Source of the DNA: an uncultured cyanobacterium
Lineage (GTDB): Bacteria > Cyanobacteriota > Cyanobacteriia > Cyanobacteriales > CAWCAG01
Assembly: GCA_963803805.1 (NCBI GenBank)
Contig: CAWDOD010000003.1
Location: 1-64,000 of the forward strand
Length of the DNA stretch: 64,000 nucleotides
Direction of reading: 5' to 3'
Shown here: positions 9,988 through 49,083 of the stretch, piece after piece
Layout: each line of letters starts with the position of its first letter
How positions within the stretch are numbered: position 1 is the stretch's first letter
Made by a program: the position numbers and the translations under genes
Notes under the pieces: generated by a model
The model's input: only the letters and a program-made list of their open reading frames with translations
Databases searched by the model: none
Told to the model about the DNA's origin: nothing

Positions 9988-11121
9988 ATGGAAAAGCTAC
10001 AGAAAATGATCAGCCTACGGCATCTGGAGGTAAATGGCAAGCGGATGATCGGCCTCAAATTTTATCCTGATAAGGTGATACAGGCCTTGGTAAAAACGCT
10101 ACCCACACCCAAATGGCATAAGCAATATCAGATGGCCTACATTAGCAATAACAAGTTGAATTACGCACAATTGTTGAATACATTTAAAGGAGTGGCCTGG
10201 CTAGATATGCGCTACTTCAGCAAGAAAGGCTGGATGGGTTGTGATGACCCTAGTCTGGTGATTGAGGCATTCAAAAAACGAGAAGTAACGGCTGGCTATA
10301 TAAGATGCCCGGAAAGCTTTCTGGATGAGTTAGAACAACGGAAATATGCAGTTAATACGGTGAGGGTCTATGTAAATTGCTTTGAGAAATTTATCAATTT
10401 TTACCCAAAGACACCTACTGAACACTTAGCCGAAGCTGAAATAAAGGTATTTATACAGAATTTAATAAAAAACAAAGCAAGTGAATCCTACATCAACCAA
10501 CACATAAATGCGATAAAATTCTATTTTGAAATTGTACATAAAATGCCCAATAGGTTCTACGACTTTCCAAGACCACTTAAAGCTGAAAAACTACCGGAAG
10601 TTCTGAGCAAAAAAGAAGTATTGAAGATGATTGACATCACTTTCAACCTAAAACACCAGTGCATTATTAGCACGTTATATTCAGCCGGCCTGAGAAGGAG
10701 CGAGCTTATTGCGCTCAAGATTACAGATATAGATAGCCAGCGAATGATTATTAAGGTAAGAGGTGCAAAGGGAAATAAAGACCGACTCAGTTTATTAAGT
10801 GAACGCTTACTTTTAAAGCTCAGGCTATATTTTAGGAATTACAAGCCCCGGGTTTACTTATTTGAAGGCTTTCCGGGAGAAGTTTACAGCGCTACCAGTG
10901 TGAGCAATATTGTTAAAAAAGCTGCAAAAAAAGCGTGTATCCCTAAAAATGTTACTCCGCATACATTGCGACATTCTTTTGCCACGCATTTACTGGAGAG
11001 TGGAACGGATTTACGCTATATACAAACCCTACTCGGCCACAATAGTAGTAAAACCACAGAAATTTATACCCATGTGGCCACAAATGTTTTCAAAGAAATA
11101 AATAATCCGTTAGATTGCTAA
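9988..11121 (+). CDS. Tyrosine recombinase with N-terminal SAM-like domain; candidate cassette integrase
   Basis: Full catalytic set: YSAGLRRSE (R), KGNKDR (K), HTLRHSFATH (HxxR), LLGH and TTEIYTHV (Y). It lies immediately upstream of the cassette array. Confidence 0.92.
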   Translation: MEKLQKMISLRHLEVNGKRMIGLKFYPDKVIQALVKTLPTPKWHKQYQMAYISNNKLNYAQLLNTFKGVAWLDMRYFSKKGWMGCDDPSLVIEAFKKREVTAGYIRCPESFLDELEQRKYAVNTVRVYVNCFEKFINFYPKTPTEHLAEAEIKVFIQNLIKNKASESYINQHINAIKFYFEIVHKMPNRFYDFPRPLKAEKLPEVLSKKEVLKMIDITFNLKHQCIISTLYSAGLRRSELIALKITDIDSQRMIIKVRGAKGNKDRLSLLSERLLLKLRLYFRNYKPRVYLFEGFPGEVYSATSVSNIVKKAAKKACIPKNVTPHTLRHSFATHLLESGTDLRYIQTLLGHNSSKTTEIYTHVATNVFKEINNPLDC

Positions 11122-11124
11122 AGA

Positions 11125-11174
11125 TACAGCGGAACTATCAACCACCAGTGGTTGATAGTCGGTTGTTGTACACC
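11125..11174 (+). other. Candidate primary (attI-like) recombination site
   Basis: Just after the recombinase stop: TACAGC-gga-ACTATCAACCAC-ca-GTGGTTGATAGT-cggtt-GTTGTACACC. This is a perfect 12-bp inverted repeat followed 5 nt later by the first GTT core (11165). Confidence 0.6.
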
Positions 11175-11192
11175 ATTTAAGAAAACGCAGAA

Positions 11193-11804
11193 TTGAATCA
11201 AGAAATAAAAATATCACGTTCGGACTTAATCGCAAAATGCGACCAATATCTGAATGGAGAAATTATAGAAAAGGATTTTGAAAATTATGCGTGGAATCTA
11301 ATAACCGAAGAACATATTGATTGGGACGATGATGTAATATCTGACATCATTTATCAATGGGACAGTCCAGAAATTAACTTTCCGATTACGAAACAAAACA
11401 TAATACTTTGGAAACATCAATTGGAAACTGATGAGGATTTATTGGCGGATTACAATATGTGGAACGCACATATCGACCGACAGAAAAAGATTTGTGAAAA
11501 GTTTGGTTCTAAATGGAATCCAATCAATAAAAAACTGAAAATCGGAGTGGGTTCTGATTTGAATGCCGACCCAATTCACGCATTGAGGCATCCAAAGGAA
11601 AAAGGAACTACAGGTTGGTACATTTGGACAGGAGAATATTCGGAATCTGATGATTTTTTCCAGCCAATGTGTGCTGAACATTTGCTTCAAATCCGACCTG
11701 AATTAATCAAATATTTCGGACTTGATGTTGGTTATCGATTTTTAATTGATAAAAACGAATACGAAGATGTTTGGTATGACGTAAATCTAAAAAATGTGGA
11801 ATAA
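11193..11804 (+). CDS. Cassette 1: Imm33-like immunity-domain protein
   Basis: C-terminal HALRHP..GTTGWYIWTGEYS..DFFQPMCAEHL resembles Imm33-type domains (recognised by eye). Confidence 0.55.
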   Translation: MNQEIKISRSDLIAKCDQYLNGEIIEKDFENYAWNLITEEHIDWDDDVISDIIYQWDSPEINFPITKQNIILWKHQLETDEDLLADYNMWNAHIDRQKKICEKFGSKWNPINKKLKIGVGSDLNADPIHALRHPKEKGTTGWYIWTGEYSESDDFFQPMCAEHLLQIRPELIKYFGLDVGYRFLIDKNEYEDVWYDVNLKNVE

Positions 11805-11808
11805 AAAC

Positions 11809-11871
11809 GGTGTACAACAAAGGGTATAGTGCATGCCCTGCGGGACACGCACCATACCCAAACCGTTAGCG
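11809..11871 (+). repeat. attC-like site 1
   Basis: GGTGTACAAC-aaa-GGGTATAGTGCATG...CACGCACCATACCC-aaacc-GTT. Confidence 0.85.
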
Positions 11872-12207
11872 GCAATACCTTAGTAATAAAGAAATTGGTT
11901 CATTGAAAATCTTGAATTGTAGGATTGACCTGATATTTGGTTTTGTCCTCTCAACCGAAGTACAGTTGGACTTCTCTTGGATTATAAACATGGTTCCATT
12001 TATAACAATTATGAATATGAAAAAAGTAGCAAGAACTCTGGAAATGGTTAAAACATTAATAGTTTTATGTGCAATTGGGGCAGGAACACTTCTGGGGAAG
12101 TCCAAGTACTTCGGTTGCAAGAGAATATTCCAAGCTCAACTTTCCTACAGAAATTCAAGAGTAAGTGTCGGGGGAGAAATCCCCCCTTCCCCACCAAATA
12201 TAATCTC

Positions 12208-13104
12208 ATGAAAAAATCTCCAATTGATGTCTTATTTTACGAGCTATTTGGTTTCTATCCTAATAAGGCTGGGAGTGCTTACGAAATTTTAACCGCTGCT
12301 GCTATAAGAATAATTACTGGTGAAGAAGTGGAATTAGACCAGCGAGTTATGGGCAACTATAGTGATACAATTTATCAAGTGGACGGGGTAACGAAGAGCC
12401 AGTCACACGAATCGATGATTGAGGCTAAAGACTATACAATTCAGAATAAGAAAGTCGGACGAGGAGACATTCAAAAATTGCAGGGAGCATTGAGCGATTT
12501 GCGTTTTAAAGAAGGATTATTTACTTCGGCTACTGACTTTACAAAACCAGCAAAGAAATATGCTGAATCTTCCTTTCTCAATCCTAGTCAAAAACCAGTA
12601 CAATTATATCAGATAAGACCCTCTACCGAGGAAGATGAAAAAGGGCGAATCAAAAAATTTGAGATCACAATGGTTATGGTTCTTCCAAATTTTGAAAAAG
12701 CTAAGTACAAATATGCTTGGACAGAAGAGGCAGTTGAAAAATTCAAAAAGAATGGATTAGCAAACAAACAAATTTCAATTAAGGTCGAGACTCTTTACGA
12801 GGATAATGGAAGTTTTGCCACTAGTATTCAAGATTTCACACATGATAACCAACCAATATTGATGGATATTGATGAAGAATTAGCTAAAGGTTGTTGGATC
12901 TTTCGAGGGCTTTGTATTAAGCATGAAAACGAATATTATGGACTAAAGGGAATTGATTACGAAATCCCTTATTATCGCTTTTCAAGTACGTTTACAATAG
13001 AATCAGAAGGGAAGCCTAAAATATACGTGGCATCTGAAAATGGAGATGTAAACAAACTTATTACGGATAAACAGCTAAGAGAAATGATACGAATCAAAAA
13101 ATAA
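12208..13104 (+). CDS. Cassette 2: Mrr-like PD-(D/E)xK restriction endonuclease domain protein
   Basis: YE...QVDG...IEAKDY motif. Likely ATG at 12208 (MKKSPIDV), after a ~340 bp leader. Confidence 0.7.
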   Translation: MKKSPIDVLFYELFGFYPNKAGSAYEILTAAAIRIITGEEVELDQRVMGNYSDTIYQVDGVTKSQSHESMIEAKDYTIQNKKVGRGDIQKLQGALSDLRFKEGLFTSATDFTKPAKKYAESSFLNPSQKPVQLYQIRPSTEEDEKGRIKKFEITMVMVLPNFEKAKYKYAWTEEAVEKFKKNGLANKQISIKVETLYEDNGSFATSIQDFTHDNQPILMDIDEELAKGCWIFRGLCIKHENEYYGLKGIDYEIPYYRFSSTFTIESEGKPKIYVASENGDVNKLITDKQLREMIRIKK

Positions 13105-13106
13105 AA

Positions 13107-13303
13107 GCCGCTAACATTCTGTATGAAATCATGGCTGGTCAGTGGTATACGGAACTTTAGCTCTTTGTAGAAAGCCCGTCAATCCGCAGGATTGACTTAG
13201 TGTATTGAGAAAAATTAGCAAGCCAATCCTGCGGATTGCCTAGTTAGTAACTTGAAACTTTTGTACTTTTAAATCAGCCACGCTTCATACAGTGGCGTTG
13301 GGC
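13107..13303 (+). repeat. attC-like site 2 (family B, ~195 bp)
   Basis: GCCGCTAAC-att-CTGTATGAAATCATGGCTG...CAGCCACGCTTCATACAG-tggc-GTT. Confidence 0.85.
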
Positions 13304-13337
13304 ACAATTTAAACGAACGACAGTAACAATATAAAAT

Positions 13338-15863
13338 ATGGTTGACTTTAAGAAAAGATTGAACAAATCTGCAATCGACAAGAAAACAGACCCGATTGAA
13401 ATATATGATTCTTTAGATAGGAGAAGTATTGCAGGTCCTTTAAGACCAGCACAGAATAAAATTCTTAAGGAATGGTATAATTCTCAGTCAACCAAAAAAG
13501 ACTTAATTATTAAACTTCATACGGGAGAGGGAAAAACATTAATTGGTTTATTAATTCTTCAATCCAAAATTAACGCAGACCAAGGCCCTTGTTTATATGT
13601 TTGCCCTAATAAATATCTTGTTCAGCAAGCTAAAAAAGATGCCAAAAAGTTTGGTATAAGTTATTGCTCTATTGAACCTGATGGTTCAGTTCCAAATGAA
13701 TTTATAGACGGTAAAAAAATATTGATAACACACGTTCAAAAAGTATTTAACGGTAAAACTGTATTTGGCATTGGGAATGATTACATACCAGTAGAAAATA
13801 TAGTTTTGGACGATTCACACGCTTGTATTGATTCTATAAGAGATTCTTTCACGATTAACCTTGACAAAGACCACCAGATTTATAAAAAATTGAGGGAATT
13901 ATTCAAAGATAGTTTGTCAGACCAAGGTCAGGGAACATTTTTGGAAATTGAGAATGGAGACTATAACTCGTTTTTGCCAATACCATATTGGAGTTGGATA
14001 GATAAGTCTGAAGAATTACTAAGTATTCTTTCAGAGTATCGAGAGGAAACAGAGTTAGCTTTTGCTTGGCCATTTATTAAAGACAACATTAAAAACTGTC
14101 AAGCATTCATATCAGGACAGAATATTGAAATCACACCAATTCACATACCTATTGAAAAGTTTACATTCTTTGATAATGCTAAACAAAGAATTTTGATGTC
14201 TGCTACAACGCAGGACGATTCCTTTTTTATAAAGGGTTTGGGTTTTAATATTGATGCTGTAAAATCACCTTTAACCAATCCCGAACAGATTTGGTCAGGA
14301 GAAAAAATGTTATTGATTCCCTCTTTAATAGATGAAAAACTTGACCGCATCACAATTGTTAATGCATTAGCCTCACCTTCTGCAAAGAACTATGGAGTAG
14401 TATCATTAGTTTCCTCGTTTTCAAAATCTGAAATTTACCATTCACTTGGTGCAATTGTTCCTAAATCAGAACAGATTGGTCAAGTAGTTGACCATTTAAA
14501 AAAAGGGAATTACAAAGAGACTGTTGTCTTTGCAAATAGGTATGACGGTATTGATTTGCCTGATGAAACTTGTCGTATTCTCGTACTTGATGGTAAACCA
14601 TTCTTTTATTCATTATCTGATAGATATGAAGAAGCCAATCGTGTAAATAGTGATTCAATTAATATCAAAATCGCGCAAAAAATAGAACAAGGTTTAGGTA
14701 GAAGTGTAAGAGGTGAGAAAGACTACTGCATTATCTTCTTGATTGGTGCAGACCTTGTAAAATTCATAAAAAGTAGCAGAACAAATAAATATTTCTCATC
14801 TCAGACAAAAAAACAACTTGAAATAGGACTTGAAATTGCTGAAATGGCAGTTGAAGAACTCTCCGACAAGAATCAACCAATGGATGCAATGAAGTCTTTA
14901 ATGAAACAACTTTTACAAAGAGACGAAGGTTGGAAAGAATTCTACAAAGAAGAAATGAATAAAATAGTATCAGAACAAAATAACAGTTCTATATATGAAA
15001 CATTGGTATTAGAGCGTAAAGCAGCAGTTTCAAACTATTCCGGAGACTATGAAAAAGCTTGTGATTCAATCCAAAAAATAGTCGACAATTACTGCAATAA
15101 TGAAAGTGAGCGAGGTTGGTACTTACAATTATTGGCTAGATACAAATATTTAGACTCAAAAGTAGAGGCTAATTCATTACAAAAATCTGCTTTTTTAAAA
15201 AACCACGAATTACTTAAACCAAGTGAAGGAATAAATTATAAAAAATTAGAATATATAAATGAAAATAGAGTTCAGAGAATTTTAAGCTACATAAAAAACT
15301 TCCAAAGCTATCAAGAGCTTATGATAAGCATTGAAGGTGTTTTAAGTGACCTAGAATTTGGAACTTCATCAGAAAAATTTGAATCTGCTTTGAAAGAACT
15401 TGGTTTAATGCTTGGCTTTTTAAGTGAACGCCCTGATAAGGAGTTTAAAAAAGGTCCTGACAATTTATGGTGCGGTGTCAGCAATCAATATTTCATTTTT
15501 GAATGCAAAAGTGAAGTAAACATTGAAAGACAAGAGATTAACAAAAATGAAGCAGGACAAATGAATACACATTGTGCTTGGTTTGAAAGTCAATATGGAG
15601 AATCTCAAGTCAAAAGAATTTTAATCATACCAACTAAAAATCTTTCTTATCACGGAGATTTTGGACGTGATGTTGAAATTATGCGAAGAGGGACACTCAA
15701 AAGTTTGCGTACCAATGTCAAATCATTTTTTAAGGAGTTTAGTAAATACGAAATTCAGTCTTTAACTGATGAAAAAATACAGGAATTTATAAACGCACAC
15801 AAACTAGACATTGAATCATTAAAAACCTTATACTCAGAAAAATACTATAAGAAAACAAATTAA
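13338..15863 (+). CDS. Cassette 3: SF2 (DinG/XPD-like) helicase with C-terminal PD-(D/E)xK nuclease-like domain (Hna-like architecture)
   Basis: HTGEGKT Walker A, LDDSH, SAT and QGLGRSVR motifs; C-terminal GPDNLW...FECKS. Confidence 0.75.
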   Translation: MVDFKKRLNKSAIDKKTDPIEIYDSLDRRSIAGPLRPAQNKILKEWYNSQSTKKDLIIKLHTGEGKTLIGLLILQSKINADQGPCLYVCPNKYLVQQAKKDAKKFGISYCSIEPDGSVPNEFIDGKKILITHVQKVFNGKTVFGIGNDYIPVENIVLDDSHACIDSIRDSFTINLDKDHQIYKKLRELFKDSLSDQGQGTFLEIENGDYNSFLPIPYWSWIDKSEELLSILSEYREETELAFAWPFIKDNIKNCQAFISGQNIEITPIHIPIEKFTFFDNAKQRILMSATTQDDSFFIKGLGFNIDAVKSPLTNPEQIWSGEKMLLIPSLIDEKLDRITIVNALASPSAKNYGVVSLVSSFSKSEIYHSLGAIVPKSEQIGQVVDHLKKGNYKETVVFANRYDGIDLPDETCRILVLDGKPFFYSLSDRYEEANRVNSDSINIKIAQKIEQGLGRSVRGEKDYCIIFLIGADLVKFIKSSRTNKYFSSQTKKQLEIGLEIAEMAVEELSDKNQPMDAMKSLMKQLLQRDEGWKEFYKEEMNKIVSEQNNSSIYETLVLERKAAVSNYSGDYEKACDSIQKIVDNYCNNESERGWYLQLLARYKYLDSKVEANSLQKSAFLKNHELLKPSEGINYKKLEYINENRVQRILSYIKNFQSYQELMISIEGVLSDLEFGTSSEKFESALKELGLMLGFLSERPDKEFKKGPDNLWCGVSNQYFIFECKSEVNIERQEINKNEAGQMNTHCAWFESQYGESQVKRILIIPTKNLSYHGDFGRDVEIMRRGTLKSLRTNVKSFFKEFSKYEIQSLTDEKIQEFINAHKLDIESLKTLYSEKYYKKTN

Positions 15864-15867
15864 AAAC

Positions 15868-16001
15868 TGTGCCCAACAATGTATATAAAAAATAGTCGAA
15901 ATAGTAGTAAAATCAAGGCTTTTGACTCGTATCAAAGTTCGTGCTTAACCGAAAGTTTTGTGCTTCGAAATCGCCTACTTTTCATATACTAACCGTTAAG
16001 C
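15868..16001 (+). repeat. attC-like site 3 (family A, ~130 bp)
   Basis: TGTGCCCAAC-aat-GTATATAAAAAATAG...CTACTTTTCATATAC-taacc-GTT. Confidence 0.85.
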
Positions 16002-16240
16002 GGCAATAAGTAAGTGCTTCTCATCGGTGGATGGTGGTAGCGAGATTTATGCTGCGCTTCGCAATACAATTAGTCGAAGAAATTTGCCCGTAGAAGCTCT
16101 GCTGCTCCACCGCCAGCTACTGCCTCGCGTCATAAAGTGAGGACTGACGTTCTAAGCCGCCATCGCTATATTTGTGTTGGCCGATAAAGTAGTCTTTCTT
16201 ATGGGCGACAGTGAATGATTAATTAAATTAAGAGGACAAC

Positions 16241-16375
16241 TGCCGCTAACAAAAGCTATACACCAGCAGGCGGGGGAAGTGGTCAGCCGCACCCGCAGTG
16301 CCTTCTGCTACTCTTGCTGTTGGCCGATAGTTGCGGGGTGATACGCCTGCCGGTGCATAGCTAAATACGTTGTGT
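16241..16375 (+). repeat. attC-like site 4
   Basis: TGCCGCTAAC-aaa-AGCTATACACCAGCAGGCG...CGCCTGCCGGTGCATAGCT-aaatac-GTT. Confidence 0.85.
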
Positions 16376-16397
16376 GTAATGTCGACTTAACGATAAG

Positions 16398-17198
16398 ATG
16401 AAGAATTTAGAAAAATATAAAGAAGATTTAGAGAATCTGATTTCGGAAGGCGACAGCTTACATATGTCTATGCAATTTGAGTGTTATCCAAAAGAATTTG
16501 AGGAACAATTAAAGCCGAGGTTAAAAGAAAAGTATGCTGATTATGTGAAAAAACTAAAGCCGTTTAAGCAAGACTATCAAACTTGGTATTCAGAATCTTT
16601 AGTTTTACTAAGGCAGTTATTGCCAGATAGAGTTGCTGACTTCACTAAACTCTATGAAAAACCACGGACGAGAAAAGTTATTGAATATGGCAATTATGTC
16701 ATTGAAGACTATCTTCAAAACCTGACCGTTACAAGAGGTTATGAAACTAAAGTTAAACCTGAAGCTGCAATAAGTCAATTTGAACAGCAAATTGCAATAG
16801 TTAAATCAATTAAGAAAAGATTTGAAAGCAGATTATTTGATATAAAGCAATTGACACAAGCTGACATATTTGATTCGGAATTGGATGCAGCAAGAGAGTT
16901 AAACAAAAAAGGATTTGTGAGAGGAGCTGGAGCAATTGCTGGTGTTGTATTGGAAAAGCACCTCGCTCAAGTGTGTGAAAATCATAAAATAAAAATAACT
17001 AAAAAAAATTCTTCAATCTCTGATTACAATGATAAACTCAAGACGTCAGAAATAATTGAAACAAAAGATTGGAGAAGGATTCAACATCTTGGAGATATTA
17101 GAAATCTTTGTGACCACAACAAGGAAAAAGAACCAAAGGAAGAAGATGCAGTGGATTTAATAGATGGAGTGGAAAAATTAATAAAAACGGTCTACTAA
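16398..17198 (+). CDS. Cassette 5a: protein with C-terminal HEPN-like domain
   Basis: AGAIAGVVLEKHL helix and RNLCDH (Rx4H) motif. Confidence 0.6.
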   Translation: MKNLEKYKEDLENLISEGDSLHMSMQFECYPKEFEEQLKPRLKEKYADYVKKLKPFKQDYQTWYSESLVLLRQLLPDRVADFTKLYEKPRTRKVIEYGNYVIEDYLQNLTVTRGYETKVKPEAAISQFEQQIAIVKSIKKRFESRLFDIKQLTQADIFDSELDAARELNKKGFVRGAGAIAGVVLEKHLAQVCENHKIKITKKNSSISDYNDKLKTSEIIETKDWRRIQHLGDIRNLCDHNKEKEPKEEDAVDLIDGVEKLIKTVY

Positions 17199-17221
17199 AA
17201 ACACTACGAACAACAATAAGT

Positions 17222-17788
17222 GTGATCTTAATGCAATTAGAAATATCAAAAATAATAGCAGATTTCATTGAGAATCGAATTTCAGCAAAGGAATTTGAAT
17301 CATGGGTTTATTCAAACCAACATCTTGAGGATGAATTGGGAATGGAACTCTATACAGAATTGATTTCAATTAATTTCAAGGATAGTTCTGCTAGAATAGC
17401 GGTTAAAAAACTTCTCGATTCTGAAATTGATTACAGAACGCTACATCGAACTCAATTAATACAGTTAATTGAAGAAATCGAGTTCAAAAAAAAAGATTTG
17501 TTAGATGGAATTAGGGAATTATACGAATGGGCGGACAAGGGATATGCATTTTTAGGAAGAATTAATTCAGTCGGAAATTTTGGCGAGCAAGGAAAGTCTG
17601 TAATTCTTATTGTAGACAAGGATTTGTCAAATGAGGAAAAATGGAATGTAATTTTGAGAGATGATCCTCATCTCCTTACAGATCTCAAGACTATTCGTAT
17701 GAAAATCGAACAGAATGAAATTCTAATAACAGGTGAAATAGAAACAGTTAAGTTTTTAGGAAGACAATACAAATATTTAGAAAAATAA
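17222..17788 (+). CDS. Cassette 5b: hypothetical protein
   Basis: 188-aa ORF ending directly before ACACACAAC. Confidence 0.6.
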   Translation: MILMQLEISKIIADFIENRISAKEFESWVYSNQHLEDELGMELYTELISINFKDSSARIAVKKLLDSEIDYRTLHRTQLIQLIEEIEFKKKDLLDGIRELYEWADKGYAFLGRINSVGNFGEQGKSVILIVDKDLSNEEKWNVILRDDPHLLTDLKTIRMKIEQNEILITGEIETVKFLGRQYKYLEK

Positions 17789-17789
17789 A

Positions 17790-17858
17790 ACACACAACAC
17801 TGTATATGAAATCATGGCACCCTGCGGGATGCCACGCTTCATATACTTAACGTTAGCA
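17790..17858 (+). repeat. attC-like site 5 (short)
   Basis: ACACACAAC-act-GTATATGAAATCATGGCA-ccctgcggga-TGCCACGCTTCATATAC-ttaac-GTT. Confidence 0.85.
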
Positions 17859-18853
17859 ACAACTCCCCTTCCATTCAAAAAACTCACTTAATAATCAATC
17901 AGTCTGCCCCTATTGTTGTACCTAAAACTTTGGCTACGCTCGGACTCGCCTTATCGATAATGTAAGTAGCGGACTGATAGGCATTCGGCAAACCTCTTTC
18001 CGCACGGCTACCTGCTTAGTTACTTATGCGGACTACTCAGCAGGCTGTGGAGAAAGCATGGTCTGGAACTGAATTCACAGCAACTTTCCCTCCCACCGGG
18101 ACGAGTAGGTATCTGCCAGCAGTGTAGCCTAGCGTGGGGACGATTTGAGATGCAGTTGCTAACACAATGTAAAAACCATGCGCTTACCCACCTTGTGGAC
18201 AGTTTATCAGTCAATCCCGCAATTTTGGCGAGCAGCGCAAAATAGTAAAAGGCCACCAGCCACCATAAATGGATAGGGGCAATTGACAGTAATCATAAAA
18301 TTGCTAACTTAACCTGCAAAATATACCGTGGCGCAAGGTTTTTACACGCGCCCGTTAGCAACAACTCCCTTTCCATTCAAAAACTCGCTGAATAATCCAT
18401 CAGTCTGCCACTAATACTGTATCTAAAACTTTTGCTACGTTCGGACGCGCCTTACCGACAATGTAACTAGCGGACTGATAGGCATTCGGCAAACCTCACT
18501 CCGAACGGCTACCCAATTAGTTATCTATGCGGACTGCTCAGCAGGCTGTGGAGAAAGCATAGTGGAACTGAATTCACAGCAACTTTCGCTCTCACCGGGA
18601 CGAGTAAGTATCTGCCAGCAGTGTAGCCTAGCGTGGGGACAATATGAGATGCAGTTGCTAACACAATGTAAAAACCATGCGCTTACCCACCTTGTGGACA
18701 ATTTATCAGTCAATCCCGCAATTTTGGCGAGCAGCGCAAAACAGTAAAAAGTCACCAGCAGCTATAAATGGACAGGGGCAATCGGCAGTAGCCATAAAAT
18801 TGCGAACTTAACCTGCAAAATATACCGTGGCGCACGGATTTTTACACGCGCCC
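17852..18853 (+). repeat. Cassettes 6 and 7: tandem diverged ~500-bp ORF-less cassettes with att sites 6 (18155-18360) and 7 (18654-18860)
   Basis: Two copies (17852-18353 and 18354-18853), each GTTAGCAAC...GTTGCTAAC followed by TGTAAAAACCATGCGC...GCGCA..TTTTTACA-cgcgccc-GTT. Confidence 0.85.
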
Positions 18854-18887
18854 GTTAGGTGTCATTAAATAAAACTGTACTGCATAA

Positions 18888-19998: not shown

Positions 19999-19999
19999 C

Positions 20000-37059: not shown

Positions 37060-37086
37060 GTCAGCTAAAAAACATTACGGTAAACA

Positions 37087-38201: not shown

Positions 38202-38240
38202 CTAATACAAAACAGACATTCAACTAAAGAGACAGACTTT

Positions 38241-38916: not shown

Positions 38917-38930
38917 GCAATGATATTACC

Positions 38931-40021: not shown

Positions 40022-40022
40022 A

Positions 40023-40141: not shown

Positions 40142-40149
40142 CCAATACC

Positions 40150-40719: not shown

Positions 40720-40723
40720 AAAA

Positions 40724-40939
40724 GGCTCTAACATTACCTAAAAATGCATTTGCTTACTGCTTCTAGCAAGTTGAGCATATAATTCTCCACAAAGCCAATC
40801 ACTTATCTTCCTTTAAAAAGAGGGTTGTCGAAGTGCTTCTCTCCTTTTACTGCTTTGCAATTGTAGTTACGGTTTGGCTTTGCTACTTTAGTACTTCGTC
40901 AGCGAATTGCGGCAAACGCATTTTAGCCGGGCGTTGTAG
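40724..40939 (+). repeat. attC-like site 25 (~215 bp)
   Basis: GGCTCTAAC...CTAAAAATGCATTTGC...GCAAACGCATTTTAG-ccgggc-GTT. Confidence 0.82.
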
Positions 40940-41012
40940 CACATTTCTGAAAACTGCTTCATTTGAAATTTTGTAACTTGGAACCAACTAACAACCAACC
41001 GACTACATCAAT

Positions 41013-42008
41013 ATGAAACGATTTATTAGCTCAAAACCAATAATTAGCTATCTACTAATCGCATATTTAATCACATTCTCATTCTGGTTTGCACCAAATA
41101 TATTTGAAGTAACTACAGACATTAGATTTGGACTTTTTACTATTGGAGGATGTGGACCTTTAATTGCAGCATATCTGGTTATGCTCATTCAATCTGAAAG
41201 GAAAATTGAAATACCATCTTTGAAAATCTTCTTTCTCTTCTTCTTTCTCTCATTATTTTCTATCACTGCCCTAATGTACTCTATAGATTTAGGAAATATA
41301 AATGAAGAAGGCTTCACACCAAGATTACAGAATGTTAGTATCCTAGGTTGGCTACTAGTATTATTGTTTTGTTTTATTACCGGACTTAACGCTAGTAATG
41401 CAGCAAACACAAAATTAAAAGAGAATTATCTGAAAACATTCTTGTTTGAAAATCAAAAATTAAAATGGTACGCTATTGCCCTTTTAATATTCCCTACACT
41501 TTCAATGCTTGGGTATTTTCTCGGGGATTTTCTTGGATTCAAGTTGACTGATTTTTTTATAAAATATGAACCTTTTTGGCTGTTGACATTTCTGGGTACT
41601 TTCCTATACTTTGGCGGAAACGAGGAATTTGGATGGAGAGGATTTATGCAAAAGGAACTACAAAAGAAATACAGTCCATTAATTAGTGCTTTACTTATAA
41701 GTGTAGCTTGGAACTTTTGGCATCTACCAATGCATTATAATGGAATTTATTCAACAGGCGGGATTGCAGACCTTCTTCCAAGATTTTTATTGATAGTACC
41801 TCATACTATAATGCTAACTTGGTTATTCAATAAGTCAAAATATTCATTACTTGCCGTAGTTCTTTTACATACAATGCATAATAGTTTCACCAGTATATTT
41901 GGTGGAGCAAGAGAAAGTCTATTCATTCTTCAAATGCTATTTTGTGTCATTGTAATAATAAAAGAAAAAATGTGGAAAAAAATAGACTACAGTAAGGTAA
42001 TTGATTAA
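41013..42008 (+). CDS. Cassette 26: CPBP (CAAX/Abi) family intramembrane metalloprotease
   Basis: EEFGWRG, WHLP and HTMHN motifs. Confidence 0.88.
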   Translation: MKRFISSKPIISYLLIAYLITFSFWFAPNIFEVTTDIRFGLFTIGGCGPLIAAYLVMLIQSERKIEIPSLKIFFLFFFLSLFSITALMYSIDLGNINEEGFTPRLQNVSILGWLLVLLFCFITGLNASNAANTKLKENYLKTFLFENQKLKWYAIALLIFPTLSMLGYFLGDFLGFKLTDFFIKYEPFWLLTFLGTFLYFGGNEEFGWRGFMQKELQKKYSPLISALLISVAWNFWHLPMHYNGIYSTGGIADLLPRFLLIVPHTIMLTWLFNKSKYSLLAVVLLHTMHNSFTSIFGGARESLFILQMLFCVIVIIKEKMWKKIDYSKVID

Positions 42009-42016
42009 TAAAAAAC

Positions 42017-42151
42017 GTGCTACAACAATGTATAACCGCAATTACGGCGGATTCGACTGCGTCCGAATCCACTCGGAATTGCTAAGCCAGTGTTCAACCG
42101 AAAAAACAGTAACTTTAAACCCGTAACTGACGGTTATACCAACCGTTGGGC
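42017..42151 (+). repeat. attC-like site 26
   Basis: GTGCTACAAC-aat-GTATAACCGCAATTACGG...CCGTAACTGACGGTTATAC-caacc-GTT. Confidence 0.85.
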
Positions 42152-42229
42152 ACAATTAAAACCGACTTCCGATTAAACCTTTTCAATTTTTGTGCATCTA
42201 ATTCTATATTGAACTTATAAACAGAAAAA

Positions 42230-44215
42230 ATGAAAAAAGTGTACCTCACAATTATAACCACTTTCTTAACGCTTGGAATTACTGCTCAAACTATTCAACA
42301 ACTCATAGATTCGGCAGCAACCTTTCCGCCTATGCCAAGGGGCACAGCAGATATGATTCCATTTGTTCAGGGCTTTCCAACTTTCGCTTCAGGAGCACCT
42401 TTCAACGATTTGGATTTTACACTTCTTGACACAGACTATATGGATGGCGAGAATAGTGGTGGAGATGTTTTTATGCCTGTTGACCCTTCAGACCAATTCC
42501 CAGGAGCCGATAAAGTAAAATATATCCGTTGCATTTTAAACACGGATTTAAATCAAGCCTATGGTAGTGCAGATATTGATAGAGTAATTCTTGGAACTCA
42601 CGAAATTAGCGTACCCTTTTTTTTACGTGGCGCTGACGGCATCGACAACGATTATGCTGTTATTCAGCACCTCGATTTTGAAGCGGGATATATTCAGCTT
42701 AAAGGTTCTGCCAATGACTACGATTTGGTATATTGTACTTTAGCTGATGGCTGCCAAACAGAAGGGTGGTATTTATTTTATACTGCCAATAACAGTATAG
42801 ACCTTATTGCATTCATCTATCCTTGCTGGGATATTGAACCTTCTGTAAGTGGTAATCCACCAAATAATCCCAACCCTATTTGTAACTCAGATAGTACCTT
42901 GAGCTTAACTAATCCTACTCATTTCAAATACGCCCAGCCCATTAACACGAATATCACTTTGACAAATGGGATTGCTCAATTTGGAAGCAATGGAAAAGAA
43001 GTCATTGGTGGAATGACAGTCGATAGCCAGGGCAATACATATTTATTTGGACTTACAGACGGCAACTTAGATGGGAATACTGATGCTGACAATGAAATCT
43101 TTGTCATCAAACTTGACATTAACGGAAACCGACAATGGGTGACAGAACTTCCAATGGCAGAAGGAACAATTTTGAAAGACGGAATTACAGACAATCAATT
43201 TTTGTATGTCTGTGGACGGACTTTGGGAAATTTGCCAGGCTTTACGAATGCAGGAAGATGGGACGGCATTATTTTAAAACTTGACCTCTCAAACGGACAA
43301 ATTATAGCGTCAGACCAATGGGGAAATGCAGGAATTGACGGTTATGGAAACATAGAACAAGACGATAACGGAAATATTTTTGTTTCAGCGCAAGGCTCGC
43401 CCGTTGGACAAGGCGGAACAGATGATGTGTATTTGGTTGCCAAACACAGCAAATCTGACCTATCCAACATTTGGCGTGAATTGAATGCACCGAACGCCAC
43501 AGGTTTTATTGCCTCTGCCGAAGCGTGGGGCGGTCTTACTTATGTTCCAAACCAAACCCCAGGTGATGGTAGGCTCATTGCTGGTGGTTGGTATTTTTCG
43601 AATTTAGGAGCTAATGCATTCGTTTCCGTATATGAAAATCTTAACTCTGCCAATCCTACTCGACCACATTCCGAAATAATCAATACACAAGGAATAAGAG
43701 CCGATTGGGTATTAGATAATGCGGTAGACAGTCAAGGAAATATATATGTAGCAGGTTTTACTACAGGCAATTTAGGTTCAACACCACTTGGCGAAGGAGA
43801 TGCCTATATTATCAAGTATTCCCCTCAACTGACAAATCCTGTTTATCTGCAATTTGGAACCAACAAATCAGACCTAATTAGGAAGTTGATTATTCAAAAT
43901 GACACACTCTACACTGTCGGCTACACTTATGGAAACTATATTGGGAATAATGCCGACCCAAATCTACTTTCAGGAGATGTATTTATTCAAAAGTTAGATG
44001 CTAACTTGAACCTTTTAAACGGAATTCAATTCGGAACACCACACGAAGACCGTGGCTTTGGTTATTTAAGAGATACGAATCTATGGATTGGCGGAATGAC
44101 CGAAGGCTATATGTCAGGAAACAATCTTGGTTCTTTTGACGGGTTTCTTGCTGCGGTAAATACGACAGACCTTTCATTGAATAACCGATTGAATAAGAAA
44201 ATTATAAAAGAATAA
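42230..44215 (+). CDS. Cassette 27: secreted beta-propeller (SBBP-repeat-like) protein
   Basis: Signal peptide; repeated VDSQGNxYxxGxTxGNL units. Confidence 0.75.
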   Translation: MKKVYLTIITTFLTLGITAQTIQQLIDSAATFPPMPRGTADMIPFVQGFPTFASGAPFNDLDFTLLDTDYMDGENSGGDVFMPVDPSDQFPGADKVKYIRCILNTDLNQAYGSADIDRVILGTHEISVPFFLRGADGIDNDYAVIQHLDFEAGYIQLKGSANDYDLVYCTLADGCQTEGWYLFYTANNSIDLIAFIYPCWDIEPSVSGNPPNNPNPICNSDSTLSLTNPTHFKYAQPINTNITLTNGIAQFGSNGKEVIGGMTVDSQGNTYLFGLTDGNLDGNTDADNEIFVIKLDINGNRQWVTELPMAEGTILKDGITDNQFLYVCGRTLGNLPGFTNAGRWDGIILKLDLSNGQIIASDQWGNAGIDGYGNIEQDDNGNIFVSAQGSPVGQGGTDDVYLVAKHSKSDLSNIWRELNAPNATGFIASAEAWGGLTYVPNQTPGDGRLIAGGWYFSNLGANAFVSVYENLNSANPTRPHSEIINTQGIRADWVLDNAVDSQGNIYVAGFTTGNLGSTPLGEGDAYIIKYSPQLTNPVYLQFGTNKSDLIRKLIIQNDTLYTVGYTYGNYIGNNADPNLLSGDVFIQKLDANLNLLNGIQFGTPHEDRGFGYLRDTNLWIGGMTEGYMSGNNLGSFDGFLAAVNTTDLSLNNRLNKKIIKE

Positions 44216-44529
44216 CTGTGCCCAACAACTAAGCATTCGTGTGGTCGGTACGACCCAACATAGCCTGTCCCGCAATTCGGGAAATGCAGTGTTGAGCGAA
44301 TCAGTAGCTTGCTAGAAGTGCTGCACCCTTATGGGTAAACCGAAATGATTGAGTTTAATGTCAGGGCTTAAAAGTGTTTACTTTTAAGCTGGAAGGAGTA
44401 GTCAAATCAAGTATTTTAAGGCTTTATCATATGACTTTTAATATTTTCATTGATTGAGGAGCTATTTTTTCCTCATTTTAGCACATTTTGAGCGTAGTTT
44501 TTCCATTACGCCCATTGCCGTTTCATTTT

Positions 44530-45669
44530 TTAGTGTCCTTTTAGTTTATTGAGCCAATGAAGAGGTGGTCCCCTTTGATCAAAGACTGCCACGGTTTGAA
44601 GTTTTCCTTTTTTGCAGGTTGGGCAGATGCCCAAGCAGGTAGCGATTGATTCAGCAATAATAATTTCAAGCTTACCTATTTGGCTCTCTATTATCGCCTT
44701 ACATGCTTTTTTACGGCTGCCCGATAAAATACCAAAATGCCTGATTCGAGTAACACCTTTTGGCAGGATATGCATGGCAAACCTTCTGATAAATTCCTTT
44801 GTCTTTAAAGTCACCACATGCTTTTTGCCACCTCTCCTGTACTCTTTGGCAGAGAAGCTGACCCCGTCCTTGTCCACATCGATCAGCCGGTGGTTGCTGA
44901 TGGCCACTTTATGGGTATACCTGCCTAGCCCCGATAGCTATCGGGGCCACTACTTGAGTAGGTCCATAAAATTGTTGCTTGCAATAGATCACCCAGTTCT
45001 TTTTAAACAACAGTTGGCCCTCCTGCTTGGTCAGCAGTTCTTCTTTTCTTAATGCGGCCACCATCTTTGCTCTAAATACTTTGCTCATGGCCTTTACAGG
45101 GAAAAGATATTTGCCCTTTCCCTTACCCTCTTTCCATTTTCCCGATCGGGTCAATCCCCCTGAAGGAATGATACAGTGAAGATGTGGGTGCAGGCTCAGG
45201 TTCTGCCCCCATGTATGGAGCACGGCAATCATGCCGTTGTGGGCGCCCATCAACTTGGGGTTAGCCGCAAAATCCTTTACCACTTGCCAAGCTGTTTTGA
45301 ACAATAGCGCATATAGCAATCCAGGCTGTTCCAAGGCCAAACCATTGAGGGTATCGGGCAGGGAAAACACCGTATGAAAATAGGAGGTGTTGAGTAAATC
45401 CTTTTCCCTTTCCTGCACCCACTTTTGCTGTAGGTGCCCTTGATCCCGATAGCTATCGGGAGGCAGTGCCTGTTGCGGCAGCTATTGTAGCTGAGGTGCA
45501 ATTTATTGCATTTAGGATTATCACAGCGATCAAGGTGACCTCCCATGGCAGACGTCCTGCATTTTGCCAATGCATACAGCGTCCTGCGCTTCCAGCTATT
45601 GCCGATAAGACTTGGCAGTTCATGTAGCTGTTGTTGCAGGATTTGCTGTACTTCAAAAGTGGGCTTCAT
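44530..45669 (-). pseudogene. IS91-family (Y2) transposase, broken into three frames
   Basis: CRT..MGGH, YNSCRNRHC, HTWGQNLSLHPHLH (HUH) and FIRRFAMHILPKG motifs. Confidence 0.85.
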
Positions 45670-46526
45670 GACCGGTAGAGTTTCTCTAAAGGAGAAAAAG
45701 GCAGTTGCCTGCCCACCCTTGCCACATGCAGGTAGCCCAAGGTGGTCTGGATGTCACCATGCCCGAGCAGATCTTTGAGGGTGATGATATCGGTGCCCAT
45801 TTCCAGCAGATGGGTGGCGTAGCTGTGACGAAGGGTATGGGCTGTGATTTGCTTCTTGATACCTGAGCGTTGCCTGGCTTCACGCATCACCCATTGCACT
45901 CCTCTGGTGGAAAGCCCGGTATATCCTCCTTCTTCATCGGATTGCCCGTTGAAAAGAAATTCAACAGGTTTTTCCGCTTCAAGATAGGTTTCAACGCCAC
46001 GGATCAGTAAGTCACAAAGCGGAACATAGCGGTCTTTCTTTCCTTTTCCCTCCCTCACATGGAGCTGTTTCCTGATTAAATCAAGATCAACAATTTTAAG
46101 CTTGCACAACTCGAAGTTCCTCAGCCCACAGCCATAGAGCAACGCCATCATTAATCGGTGCTTCAGTAGTTTTGGAGTCTTTAAAAGTAAGCGTACTTCT
46201 TGCTGACTTAATACAACGGGTAGTGCCTTCTGCCTTCCAATGGAGGGTAATATCACCCTGCTTTCTGTGCGGTCAAATATCCTGTAGAGGTAGCGAAGTC
46301 CGTAAACGGTGTGCTTGAAGAAGCTATCAGAAGGCGTCTTCCTTTTGGACTTTAACATGTGCAGATAATCCAGGATTTGCTCGTCATCCAGTTCCAGCAA
46401 ATCACATTGCAAGTGCAGACCCATATGTGCCAAACACCTCCCATAATTAGTGAGTGTGCTCTGGCTTTTGCCGGCAATATCAATACTTCTTCTTAGCCTT
46501 TTGTACTGTAGGCCGAAGCCTGGCAC
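45666..46526 (-). CDS. Tyrosine recombinase of the IS91-associated type
   Basis: YGCGLRNFE, KGKKDR, HTLRHSYATH, LLGH and TTLGYLH motifs. The natural ATG (46569) is out of frame across an A8 run. Confidence 0.88.
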   Translation of the reverse strand: MPGFGLQYKRLRRSIDIAGKSQSTLTNYGRCLAHMGLHLQCDLLELDDEQILDYLHMLKSKRKTPSDSFFKHTVYGLRYLYRIFDRTESRVILPSIGRQKALPVVLSQQEVRLLLKTPKLLKHRLMMALLYGCGLRNFELCKLKIVDLDLIRKQLHVREGKGKKDRYVPLCDLLIRGVETYLEAEKPVEFLFNGQSDEEGGYTGLSTRGVQWVMREARQRSGIKKQITAHTLRHSYATHLLEMGTDIITLKDLLGHGDIQTTLGYLHVARVGRQLPFSPLEKLYRS

Positions 46527-46655
46527 AGCTTGACAGGCTTTTTCAATTAGGGTATTACTTTTTTTTCATAACTTATAATTTAATGAATGAATACTCAACC
46601 TAAGTTACGGAAGTCTGAACAAATTGTCAGGCTTCCGCCCTTAGGCGGATTCGTT

Positions 46656-46782
46656 CAACAATGTATATAAAAAATAGGCGATTTAGTAATAAATTCAAGG
46701 TTTTTGCTCATATCAAACTTTGTGTTTAACCGAGAGTTCAGTGATTCGATATCGCCTACTTTTCATATACTAAACGTTAGCG
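46656..46782 (+). repeat. Right part of attC-like site 27 (family A)
   Basis: CAAC-aat-GTATATAAAAAATAGGCGA...TCGCCTACTTTTCATATAC-taaac-GTT. Confidence 0.85.
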
Positions 46783-46833
46783 GTAATGCAAAAAACACTC
46801 TACAAGAAAACAAAAATTCTAAAATAGAAAGAA

Positions 46834-47322
46834 ATGACAGAGTTAGAAGACAAATTTGAAATTTACGAATTGGCGTATAAGTTTGCTGATGCGGCCAATC
46901 GAAAAGACGGAAAAATGTTTCAATCCCTTTGGGCAGACGAAGGTGCTGAATGGATTATTGGAAAACCCATAAATAAAGAATTTAAAGGAAAAGAAAATAT
47001 GGGTGGGTATGTAACGCAAATGCTCGGGCTTTGGGAATTTTTTGTGCAGATGGTTACTGGCGGAGTTGTAATACTAAAAGGAAATGAGGCATATGCACGT
47101 TTTTATGTTCAAGAAATTGCAAATGGAAAGAATGAAACAGGGAACCATAACCTGAGTATGTACGAGGACGAATTGATAAAAAATGATGGTCTTTGGTACT
47201 TTAAAAAAAGAACATATCATACCATATTTCAATCAACGGAAAGACAAAAGGGAGAAGTTATACAAGTTCCAGATTTACCAGAATGGAGTAAAGAAAAATC
47301 GTTGAACACTAGAGCACAATAG
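46834..47322 (+). CDS. Cassette 28: SnoaL/NTF2-like protein
   Basis: IYELAYKFADAAN...YEDELIK..GLWYFKKR pattern. Confidence 0.75.
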   Translation: MTELEDKFEIYELAYKFADAANRKDGKMFQSLWADEGAEWIIGKPINKEFKGKENMGGYVTQMLGLWEFFVQMVTGGVVILKGNEAYARFYVQEIANGKNETGNHNLSMYEDELIKNDGLWYFKKRTYHTIFQSTERQKGEVIQVPDLPEWSKEKSLNTRAQ

Positions 47323-47348
47323 TCAATATAAACAAAAATTCTAAAAAT

Positions 47349-48068
47349 ATGAAAAAAGTTATTCATAAAGCAGAAACGAGAGGACACGCAAATCACGGCT
47401 GGTTAGACAGTTATCACACTTTTAGTTTTGCAAATTATCACAATCTTGAGCGAATGAATTTTGGTGTTTTAAGAGTTTTAAATGACGACACCGTATCTGG
47501 AGGAATGGGATTTGGGAAACATCCACATAGAGATATGGAAATAATAAGCATACCGCTTGAAGGAACTCTAAAACACGAAGATAGTATGGGTACGAAAAGT
47601 ATCATTGAAAGCGGTGATGTTCAAGTAATGAGTGCTGGTACAGGAGTAACACACAGCGAAAAAAATGCAAGTCAAACTGAAACCGTAAAATTTCTACAAA
47701 TATGGATTATTCCGAAAAAGTTGGGATTGGAACCACGCTATGGTGAAATCAACTTATCTGATGGTGCAAAACCCAACGATTTTCAACAGATAGTTTCACC
47801 CAATAAAGACGATGCCGGAACTTGGATTAATCAAGATGCTTGGCTCAACCTTGCTAATTTCGACAAAGGAACCACCAAAGAGTATTGTATTCAAAAGAAC
47901 ACAAATGGCATCTATGTTTTCATAATTGAGGGTAAGGCAAAAATAAATAATCAATTATTGGAAAAGCGTGACGGTTTAGGCATTTCAGAAACACAATCTT
48001 TCAAAGTTGAGGCGATAGAAAATTCACAGATACTTTTAATTGAAGTACCTATGGAATTGCCCGAATAA
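47349..48068 (+). CDS. Cassette 28: pirin family protein
   Basis: HGWLDSYHTFSF, HPHRDMEI and MSAGTGVTHSE motifs. Confidence 0.9.
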   Translation: MKKVIHKAETRGHANHGWLDSYHTFSFANYHNLERMNFGVLRVLNDDTVSGGMGFGKHPHRDMEIISIPLEGTLKHEDSMGTKSIIESGDVQVMSAGTGVTHSEKNASQTETVKFLQIWIIPKKLGLEPRYGEINLSDGAKPNDFQQIVSPNKDDAGTWINQDAWLNLANFDKGTTKEYCIQKNTNGIYVFIIEGKAKINNQLLEKRDGLGISETQSFKVEAIENSQILLIEVPMELPE

Positions 48069-48077
48069 ATTAAAATT

Positions 48078-49006
48078 ATGAAAAACTCAAGTAAACTAAA
48101 AACACTCCTCTACAAAGGAAACGAAAAAAGCAAATTGACCTTGCATCTGTTTTTGCAGATTATCGGCAAGATACGAATGAATAAAACCGAACGTAAAAAC
48201 CATTGGTGGTATATCACAGAATATATCGATACTAAAGGGATTTCATCGGGTGCTATTCCATACGATAACGGAAATAATACCTTCAAAATTACCATTAACG
48301 TTTTACAACACCTTTAGAAGTCGAAAACTCAAAAGGCGGTTTCAATTCTTTTGAATTATCATCAAGCTTGACCGTTGCAGAATTCTTCAAAAAAATATCC
48401 AATATTTTGAAAGAGCAAAACATCCCTTTTACAATTTTTGACAAACCGTTTGACTTAAGTATTGATAGCAAATTTGGACAGATTAATGATTTACATCATT
48501 ATGATAAAGACTATGTTTTTGAGCTTTGGAAAGCCTTGCTTTGGGTAGATACTGTATTTAAAGAATTTAGTGGCAGGTTTTACGGTAAAACCTGTCCAGT
48601 TCATTTATATTGGCACTCAATGGATTTAACGGTAACACGATTTTCTGGCAAAAAAGCACCACCAATGCCAAACGATGCAAGAATTTCCGATAAGGATGCC
48701 TATTCGCACGAGGTCATCAGTTTTGGTTTTTGGCCAGGCGATGAAAATGTACAGGAACCAGCCTTTTATTCTTACACATATCCTTCACCAAAAGGTATAG
48801 ACAAAGAGATTATTTTACCCCAACAAGCTAAGTGGGTCGAAGTCAACAACAGCCCGATGGCGATATTGAAATATAATGATTTAGTGAATGAAAAGAACCC
48901 ACGGAAATCATTGTTGGAATTTTTACAAACCACTTATCATGCAGGTGCTAAATTAGCAAAGTGGGATATAAAAGGTTTTGAAGTTCCAGACTTAAATAAA
49001 TTATAA
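48078..49006 (+). pseudogene. Cassette 28: DUF5996-like protein, frameshifted near 48312
   Basis: TLHLFLQIIGK...NHWW in the first ORF; PVHLYWHSMDL, AYSHEVISFGFWPG and FYSYTYPSP in the second. Confidence 0.7.
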
Positions 49007-49018
49007 GAAGAAACAATT

Positions 49019-49083
49019 ATGGTTAAAATTGACATCGAAAATAACGGTAAGAAAGGTCGTTTTGCAATTTACGAAGATGATAT
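49019..49083 (+). pseudogene. Truncated start of a YjdJ-like small GNAT at the sequence junction
   Basis: MVKIDIENNGKKGRFAIYEDD resembles the N-terminus of small Bacteroidota GNATs; similarity appears to end here. Confidence 0.45.

Follow-up and report, generated by a model that had tools for sequence, protein, structure and literature searches.

An integron-like cassette array headed by a tyrosine recombinase without the IntI-specific domain on a marine Bacteroidota chromosome

We analysed a stretch of 64,000 nucleotides of a marine Bacteroidota chromosome (contig CAWDOD010000003.1, positions 1 to 64,000; referred to as the window), which hosts an array. In it, a tyrosine recombinase gene (9988-11121) is followed by 27 co-oriented cassettes, a single insertion of IS91 type and a last unit that is truncated. 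The array is integron-like, and fails two tests that define integrons: the recombinase lacks the IntI-specific domain, which contains the I2 helix, and it does not reach the required score against the IntI model. We consider it probable, with good confidence from the sequence evidence below, that the array is a chromosomal integron-like cassette platform, in which the adjacent I2-less recombinase would perform integron-type capture and excision at G|TT.

The two ends of the units are related in a characteristic way. From the intergenic sequences we mapped 28 inverse cores and 29 unit starts, the first start at 11165 and the last at 46776 (position of the G of GTT). In all 28 bounded units the start core pairs with the unit's own far end: of the 7 variable bases that follow GTT, all agree in 16 units and 6 in the remaining ones, whereas agreement across the adjacent hairpin reaches 6 in a single unit, belonging to the tandem duplicate pair of cassettes 6 and 7. 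An initial annotation of this DNA had described such pairing of cores with their own far ends, usually not across the hairpin. The six 10-nt pairs that it quoted are all exact reverse complements at the positions given, and the 1-nt deviations that it recorded in units 4 and 25 correspond to an indel and to an ATT start, respectively. The window contains 27 exact pairs of a GTT-10-mer and its complement, compared with 3 to 16 in 20 shuffles. The real pairs link head to tail, the longest chain comprising 22; chains of three or more did not occur in 30 shuffles of a 20-kb locus. Unit lengths range from 374 to 3250 nt (median 1177) and site lengths from 58 to 220 nt. Every one of the 28 inverse cores has AAC at its end, and GTT opens all but one of the 29 cores. 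A purine occupies position 4 in 29/29 cores, and the consensus GTTRRRY fits 5/29, which bears out the earlier remark that many cores break it.

In the mechanism that we propose, the tyrosine recombinase at the head of the array would insert and excise circular cassettes in a site-specific manner, at the G|TT that is conserved in the long, imperfectly palindromic sites, and the neighbouring recombinase would be the cognate enzyme. A crossover at GTT would leave each cassette with the outer half of its own core at the 5' end, which would account for the own-end complementarity. The cassette ends of attC sites self-pair over 9-11 nt (Bouvier et al., 2009, PMC2727003; statements on this and the other papers cited refer to the portions of their text available to us).

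Movement of whole cassettes is visible within the array and in other organisms. Cassettes 2 and 9 are separated by 8 kb and share 99.2% identity over 1443 nt, and their homology stops at the GTT cores. We also compared Logan contigs from four runs of four studies with 11100-31000, at a likeness of at least 90%. Cassette 3, which encodes a helicase, is present in contigs of X1, X2 and X3, in pieces that begin at 13296/13297. An X1 contig has cassette 1 behind other upstream sequence, with the divergence exactly at 11165. Record 26 of X6, a contig of 2088 nt, spans cassette 5 completely (16369-17854; 6 differences) between unlike flanks. The loose ends of foreign contigs fall at GTT at 11165, 15997, 27046/27048, 27837 and 29496/29497. 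Among public runs, the maximal share of sampled words of 11100-21000 was 0.21, and no RNA run was listed for this stretch. From these sequence comparisons, the cassette-precise duplicate and the foreign contigs diverging at GTT, the cassettes are demonstrably mobile as units, with single cassettes common to other organisms. The same two observations support the earlier reading of the locus as bearing an integron cassette signature and acting as a capture and shuffling platform. Intergenic palindromic repeats or terminators between ordinary co-oriented genes, in an immobile locus, would also produce sites of which many can be folded as terminator-like hairpins, as is the case here. We regard this explanation as practically untenable, being contradicted by the own-end complementarity in 28/28 units, the cassette-precise duplicate, the foreign contexts diverging at GTT and the absence of the region from the sister species.

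The sites have a common anatomy. On the top strand, they consist of an inverse core N7-AAC, 2-4 nt, a stem arm, a variable loop, the second arm, approximately 5 nt, and GTT-N7. Bottom-strand folds show an unpaired bubble of 5 nt on one side (15/28 sites) and 3 nt on the other (18/28). A C directly precedes GTT in 25/28 sites, so that on the bottom strand AAC is followed by G, as in most attC sites (Bouvier et al., 2009, PMC2727003). Between site families, the stem sequences are wholly unlike and the pairing is kept. In the 136-nt family, of which the own genome contains 7 copies, all in the array, two G.T positions are kept in 8/8 and 7/8 copies, one copy being from a TARA contig of another organism. 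Covariation within this family is minimal (a double change in 2/33 pairs), so support for the stem rests on the comparison between families.

Predicted folds differ between the strands. The bottom strand folds better in 24/28 sites, with a mean gain of 1.75 kcal/mol (Wilcoxon p 0.0003), a count and a p value that are overstated because related site families inflate independence. The minimum-free-energy folds contain 69 G.T pairs on the bottom strand and 26 on the top strand. With few site families in the array, the G.T and bubble counts are likewise not independent. In the same kind of fold, the first 12 stem pairs are bulge-free in 14/28 sites, and an unpaired base is found on the R''-L'' arm in 11/28. 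Extrahelical bases, termed common to all known attC sites (Bouvier et al., PMC2727003), are, as far as these predictions go, not general in the sites of this array. The absence of such a base from the first 12 stem pairs of half of the sites would suit a platform with the same enzyme in which L'-spacer-R' simple sites recombine as double strands in the classical Xer manner, with the palindromes serving only as paired binding sites. Such a reaction would also suit the lack of I2 in the enzyme, because I2 has been credited with the move from double- to single-strand recombination (PMC7790495). We consider a double-stranded reaction unlikely: the predicted strand asymmetry in G.T pairs and stability argues against it, as do the long stems kept across unrelated site families and the own-end pairing over 9-10 nt, a length of consequence only if the site is folded or excised. 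Given an integron-type mechanism, we lean towards a folded bottom strand, as in integrons, as the predicted substrate.

Two short motifs were observed in and around the sites. The presumed attI regions of several loci (window 11128-11140, L001:11130-11165, L002:11165-11190) share a TGCGGAT / CTGCGGGA-like motif, which is also seen at the tips of the sites at 11809-11874 and 17789-17861, and in the inner palindromes of the 200-nt family (e.g. 13180-13240); it could be a protein-binding site. A AGTTYNGTGCTT-like motif forms two to four direct repeats in variable loops, in the 136-nt family (e.g. 15930-15975), L001:13400-13480 and L016:6200-6290, and these repeats are candidate accessory ('arm-type') sites. 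The presumed attI as a whole is weakly conserved, with a mean column identity of 38% across 10 loci.

The enzyme at the head of the array is the following:

9988-11121 (+): tyrosine recombinase, 377 aa, with an extra N-terminal domain (1-108), a SAM-like core-binding domain and a catalytic domain; PF13495, PF00589

Residues R236, K261, H325, R328, H351 and Y360 are invariant in 23 homologues, as are many residues of the N-terminal domain. The NCBIfam scores are 212.9 bits for XerA (cut-off 220) and 196.1 bits for IntI (TIGR02249, cut-off 265). The TIGR02249 match is split in two stretches, with profile positions 179-239 unmatched, and the alignment with VchIntIA (2a3v) is split too, with recombinase residues 280-302 (23 residues) opposite IntI 179-244 (66 residues). 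The spacing from the K-box to HxLRH is 58 in the recombinase, compared with 100 in canonical Bacteroidota IntIs (pattern measurable in 5 of 10). The IntI-specific insertion, that is the additional domain of about 35 residues near patch III with the I2 helix, is absent from the recombinase. The initial annotation held that a strong match to an IntI hidden Markov model would make the array an ordinary integron, and the match found is the one below cut-off in two pieces. Its description of the enzyme as 'not IntI-like' is correct in that the enzyme is not a canonical IntI, and overstated in that the recombinase core is about equally near to IntI and to XerA/XerD.

The N-terminal domain (1-108) matches no Pfam family even at E 10, belongs to unnamed Bacteroidota clusters only in a protein atlas at 0.85, and gave no Foldseek match in the PDB at E <= 0.001. 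It is predicted to fold as beta-beta-alpha-beta-beta-alpha, with a predicted local distance difference test score above 90 for residues 11-70. Fold matches were to the T4 UvsW N-domain and the XPB damage-recognition domain (Z 6.0-6.2), to CASTOR (Z 6.4) and to SMARCAL1 HARP (Z 4.2, Foldseek probability 0.69). Relatives contain one to three copies of this module, with two in tandem in L012 and L024 and three in L014 and L015. We hypothesize that this conserved domain, and not an IntI I2 insertion, would help to recognise folded DNA.

The 10 canonical Bacteroidota IntIs group as a single clade (Shimodaira-Hasegawa-like approximate likelihood ratio test, SH-aLRT, 99) in a quick maximum-likelihood tree of 103 recombinases. 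The window recombinase is placed in a separate clade of 38 rows (SH-aLRT 89), 36 of which have the N-terminal module; the backbone of the tree is unresolved. Its own genome (97.4% complete) has four PF00589 hits, namely the array recombinase, the recombinase of the insertion and two distant ones, and none of them passes the IntI model. The distribution of the recombinase is patchy: it is found in 0/30 relatives at E <= 1e-60, the same genus included, and in 3/400 genomes sampled from the phylum. A search by sequence words across 5.8 billion proteins gave at least 8000 scored matches, all significant. If the window's own sequence is left out, the best 120 of these have lengths of 363-400 aa and identities of 53-76%, and their named sources are Marivirga, Aureibaculum, Aquimarina, Arenibacter, Pricia and other Bacteroidota. 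At E <= 1e-40, the recombinase was not found in any phage record.

Recombinases of this kind are repeatedly found next to such arrays, as the initial annotation had asked of orthologues. At loci with a homologue carrying the N-terminal domain and at least 3 kb downstream, units lie directly behind the gene in 6/6 cases: 5 units in L001 (a Crocinitomicaceae metagenome-assembled genome, 53% identity, by eye), 3 in L010, 2 in L018, 1-2 in L024, 6 in the genome G111, and units in L016. Where 0.9-2.5 kb are available downstream, a unit is present in 5/9 loci, with exact 10-mers in L020 and L033 and agreement at 9/10 in L002, L013 and L021. On a Chryseobacterium plasmid, the recombinase copy is followed by an exact unit. 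The 136-nt site family also occurs behind distant recombinases, one 51% identical (L010) and one 41% identical on a Chondrinema plasmid, in which the inverse core of the first unit was not found. These loci come from searches of different reach: a metagenome scan with generic patterns returned 80 loci, most of them short Xer-like genes without the N-terminal domain, and a genome-contig search with over-specific peptide patterns led to 3 loci only.

Two further kinds of locus were noted. At L065:5924-9656, a 280-aa recombinase of a different I2-less clade lies divergently beside a chain of 5 cassette-like units with AAC/GTT cores, and the phenomenon may thus reach beyond the family with the N-terminal domain. 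The plasmid arrays of L117 and L118 contain a minus-strand group II intron maturase gene (ltrA; L117:18720-20036 and L118:8708-9988), with ends that adjoin cassette-site sequence, in L118 a site of the 136-nt family; they recall the group IIC introns of integrons (PMC7923331).

Another explanation is an ordinary integron array, of the type termed cluster of attC sites lacking integron-integrases (CALIN), which a canonical IntI, since lost or acting from elsewhere, would have assembled next to an unrelated Xer-like gene. The sites do share the attC ground plan. Canonical IntI genes above the TIGR02249 cut-off, of up to 488 bits, are present in 22/401 sampled Bacteroidota species genomes, the same order included (G019, G044, G062, G103, G144, G286 and others; open reading frames (ORFs) of 309-344 aa in the 10 examined), so that ancestral action or action in trans is possible. 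We nevertheless find this explanation very unlikely. No canonical IntI was found in the own genome or in the array-bearing G111, and the I2-less recombinase is at the head of the array, co-oriented, in 6/6 loci with enough flank, the first cassette starting here 43 nt past the stop codon. The site families of the window match loci of I2-less enzymes only (L010, L001, L016) and, the 136-nt family included, none of the 20 canonical-IntI loci L097-L116, of which 12 are short and lie at canonical IntI genes and the other 8 are flank loci from four of the same genomes. In four complete genomes, no own-end chain longer than 3 was found within approximately 18 kb of the canonical IntI, which is weak evidence as the detector was strict; at k=8 it was too noisy on such loci. 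The canonical IntIs of the four genomes may be cassette-less In0 elements.

Besides the presence of canonical IntIs in the phylum and the relatedness of the site families, several observations weigh against the platform that we propose. Some of the automatic chain links are due to chance, for example in L001 and L024, where such links begin upstream of the recombinase. The Logan evidence consists of contigs and not raw reads, and informs on presence and boundaries, not on circles. In L012, L014, L015 and L037, with 1.0-1.5 kb downstream, no unit was seen. The likeness of the N-terminal domain to DNA-binding folds is weak (Z 4.2-6.4), and a role as a structure-specific DNA-binding module, suggested by the fold matches, is a lead only. 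Finally, there are signs of decay: cassettes 8, 9, 22 and 24 have short or split ORFs only and the last unit is truncated, so the array may be largely sedentary.

Treponema provides an example of integrons with an 'inverted integrase'. This group of sedentary chromosomal integrons, in which intI is co-oriented with the cassettes (Cury et al., 2016, PMC4889954), is the nearest known kind. The likeness extends to the tyrosine recombinase at the head, promoterless-looking co-oriented cassettes, AAC...GTT cores, unpaired spacer, stem and variable loop, own-end complementarity, predicted bottom-strand bias, mixed cargo and repeated site families. In contrast to sedentary integrons, the array has a recombinase without the IntI insertion, below the IntI cut-off, with an extra N-terminal domain and in a clade of its own on the unresolved backbone, and its sites depart from theirs in the predicted bulge-free stems and in the cores that do not fit GTTRRRY. 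IntegronFinder would call the array a CALIN if its attC model matches the sites, because the neighbouring gene would fail the intI_Cterm profile (PMC4889954). It differs from a CALIN in having a dedicated recombinase, which is found repeatedly with arrays of this kind. The available text of Cury et al. (2016, PMC4889954) states that recombinases without intI_Cterm adjoined fewer than 3 attC sites and were judged not to be IntI, whereas the array here has 27 cassettes; the four IntI/Xer intermediates in their Supplementary Figure S1 may bear on the present recombinase. Xer/dif systems (XerC/XerD, archaeal XerA) resemble it as well, since the best sequence and fold matches include XerA (4a8e, 5hxy) and XerD, with the same core length and no insertion. 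Unlike these, the recombinase is not a conserved housekeeping gene, possesses an additional N-terminal domain and is associated with a cassette array, not with a single dif site.

For Bacteroidetes, the accessible part of the IntegronFinder 2.0 preprint lists In0 elements only and one complete integron in Salinibacter, and Bacteroidota are named among the clades previously found without integrons (Darracq et al., 2024). The additional domain is treated as defining by Ghaly et al. (2022). In an integron-like subgroup, the insertion was reported as 'not fully conserved', and arrays are not described in the portion of that paper at hand (Smyshlyaev et al., 2021). Full-text searches, with subscription journals outside their scope, yielded no description of arrays headed by an I2-less recombinase.

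We tentatively put forward, as a possibility somewhat short of an even chance, that these systems form a separate and possibly ancestral integron lineage, widespread on Bacteroidota chromosomes and plasmids. It would combine an I2-less, Xer-like integrase, folded single-stranded sites mostly without extrahelical bases, and, for structure recognition, one to three copies of a conserved N-terminal module whose fold weakly resembles UvsW-N, XPB-DRD and HARP.

The right end of the array was confirmed at 49083, the position given in the initial annotation: identity of 92-93% with the sister species G001 starts exactly there. The last unit (46776-49082) lacks an inverse core. The sister species is without the array region and also without the recombinase. 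Its other flank maps to a different contig of the own genome (G000), which indicates a rearrangement, and an empty site is consequently not definable. To the left, 5000-9980 upstream of the recombinase has no match in the sister species or sister genus, and the window starts at a contig end. Approximately 7 kb past the array end, inside the stretch syntenic with the sister species, lies a gene for transfer-messenger RNA (56209-56606, minus strand, 125.3 bits), which was the only result of an Rfam scan of the window at the gathering threshold.

The features of the array downstream of the recombinase gene are as follows:

11122-11167 (+): presumed attI, read from sequence; 43 nt from the recombinase stop codon to the first GTT, with a 12-bp perfect inverted repeat
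11165-11864 (+): cassette 1; Imm33-like protein (11193-11804); 66-nt site
11865-13296 (+): cassette 2; Mrr_cat restriction-endonuclease-like protein (12067-13104); 201-nt site
13297-15994 (+): cassette 3; 841-aa helicase, PADLOC candidate defence protein PDC-S28 (1097.2 bits); 137-nt site
15995-16368 (+): cassette 4; 374 nt, no ORF of at least 50 aa; 1-nt indel in the core
16369-17851 (+): cassette 5; two ORFs of 266 and 188 aa without Pfam family; 73-nt site
17852-18353 and 18354-18853 (+): cassettes 6 and 7; tandem pair, 90.6% identical, no convincing ORF; sites of about 210 nt
18854-20126 (+): cassette 8; short ORFs, 18888-19349 with an ADH_N match, 19497-19877 and 19795-19998 without Pfam family
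20127-21554 (+): cassette 9; near-identical to cassette 2, open ORF of 208 aa (20737-21363) compared with 345 aa in cassette 2
21555-22194 (+): cassette 10; GNAT acetyltransferase (21590-22063)
22195-23873 (+): cassette 11; 508-aa defence-type reverse transcriptase, RT_UG14 (656.7 bits)
23874-24771 (+): cassette 12; acetolactate-decarboxylase-like ORF (23909-24487)
24772-25397 and 25398-26137 (+): cassettes 13 and 14; a single ORF in each, without Pfam family; 200-nt site family
26138-27045 (+): cassette 15; 279-aa ORF
27046-27835 (+): cassette 16; DUF3267
27836-29055 (+): cassette 17; 342-aa ORF
29056-29493 (+): cassette 18; 92-aa ORF
29494-32743 (+): cassette 19; four genes, TetR, ABC ATPase, permease and a 238-aa ORF
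32744-35654 (+): cassette 20; TetR (minus strand), alpha/beta hydrolase, two GNATs and a small ORF
35655-37052 (+): cassette 21; 422-aa serine beta-lactamase family protein (PF00144)
37053-38194 (+): cassette 22; BtrH_N/DUF4872 split over two ORFs
38195-38909 (+): cassette 23; RibD_C
38910-40134 (+): cassette 24; PF00144 gene split over two ORFs
40135-40932 (+): cassette 25; start ATT instead of GTT, 189-aa ORF
40933-42144 (+): cassette 26; Rce1-like CAAX protease
42145-44226 (+): cassette 27; 661-aa beta-propeller-repeat protein, up to the inverse core TGTGCCCAAC; remainder of the site at 46660-46775
44227-46659 (-): IS91-type element, 2433 nt, inside site 27, immediately past the inverse core
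45666-46526: tyrosine recombinase of the insert, accompanied by transposase ORFs in pieces (Zn_Tnp_IS91, Y2_Tnp)
46660-46775 (+): distal part of site 27; 136-nt family
46776-49082 (+): last unit; SnoaL-like, pirin, DUF5996 (two ORFs), and an ORF from 49019 that crosses 49083

By Pfam and PADLOC, the cargo is mixed and comprises defence genes, three GNATs, two PF00144 genes, a TetR/ABC set and many ORFs without family.

The initial annotation had counted 28 co-oriented units. The co-oriented array stands, with 27 cassettes and the truncated last unit, and its 'unit 28' is the insert at 44227-46659. In-silico excision of this segment restores a normal 136-nt site, identical to site 3 at 118/137 positions, and the segment is therefore an IS91-type insertion and not a cassette. 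Its Pfam matches, all on the minus strand, are PF04986 in two pieces and PF14319 in one, as expected of a Y2/HUH-type transposase with a zinc-binding N-terminus. With IS91-family elements that have an upstream tyrosine recombinase it shares Y2_Tnp, Zn_Tnp_IS91 and the tyrosine recombinase, and one of its ends adjoins a short tetranucleotide-type target; it differs from the family in sitting within a cassette recombination site, after the inverse core, and in its fragmented transposase ORFs. We also considered 44291-46775 as a cassette, the ends of which agree with one mismatch; it is ruled out by the restored 136-nt site and by the atypical geometry of the apparent 84-nt site.

The array type is not confined to this window. 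A domain-less recombinase that recurs with large arrays would widen the definition of the integron, and the pairing would account for some of the 'integrase-less' arrays. It would also offer a natural test of the need for I2 and for extrahelical bases; if the reading as a separate lineage is true, I2 is not required for integron-type recombination. The finding would reveal a pool of cassettes in marine Bacteroidota and on plasmids, with genes of anti-phage defence and of the beta-lactamase family, which current integron detectors would not link to an integrase.

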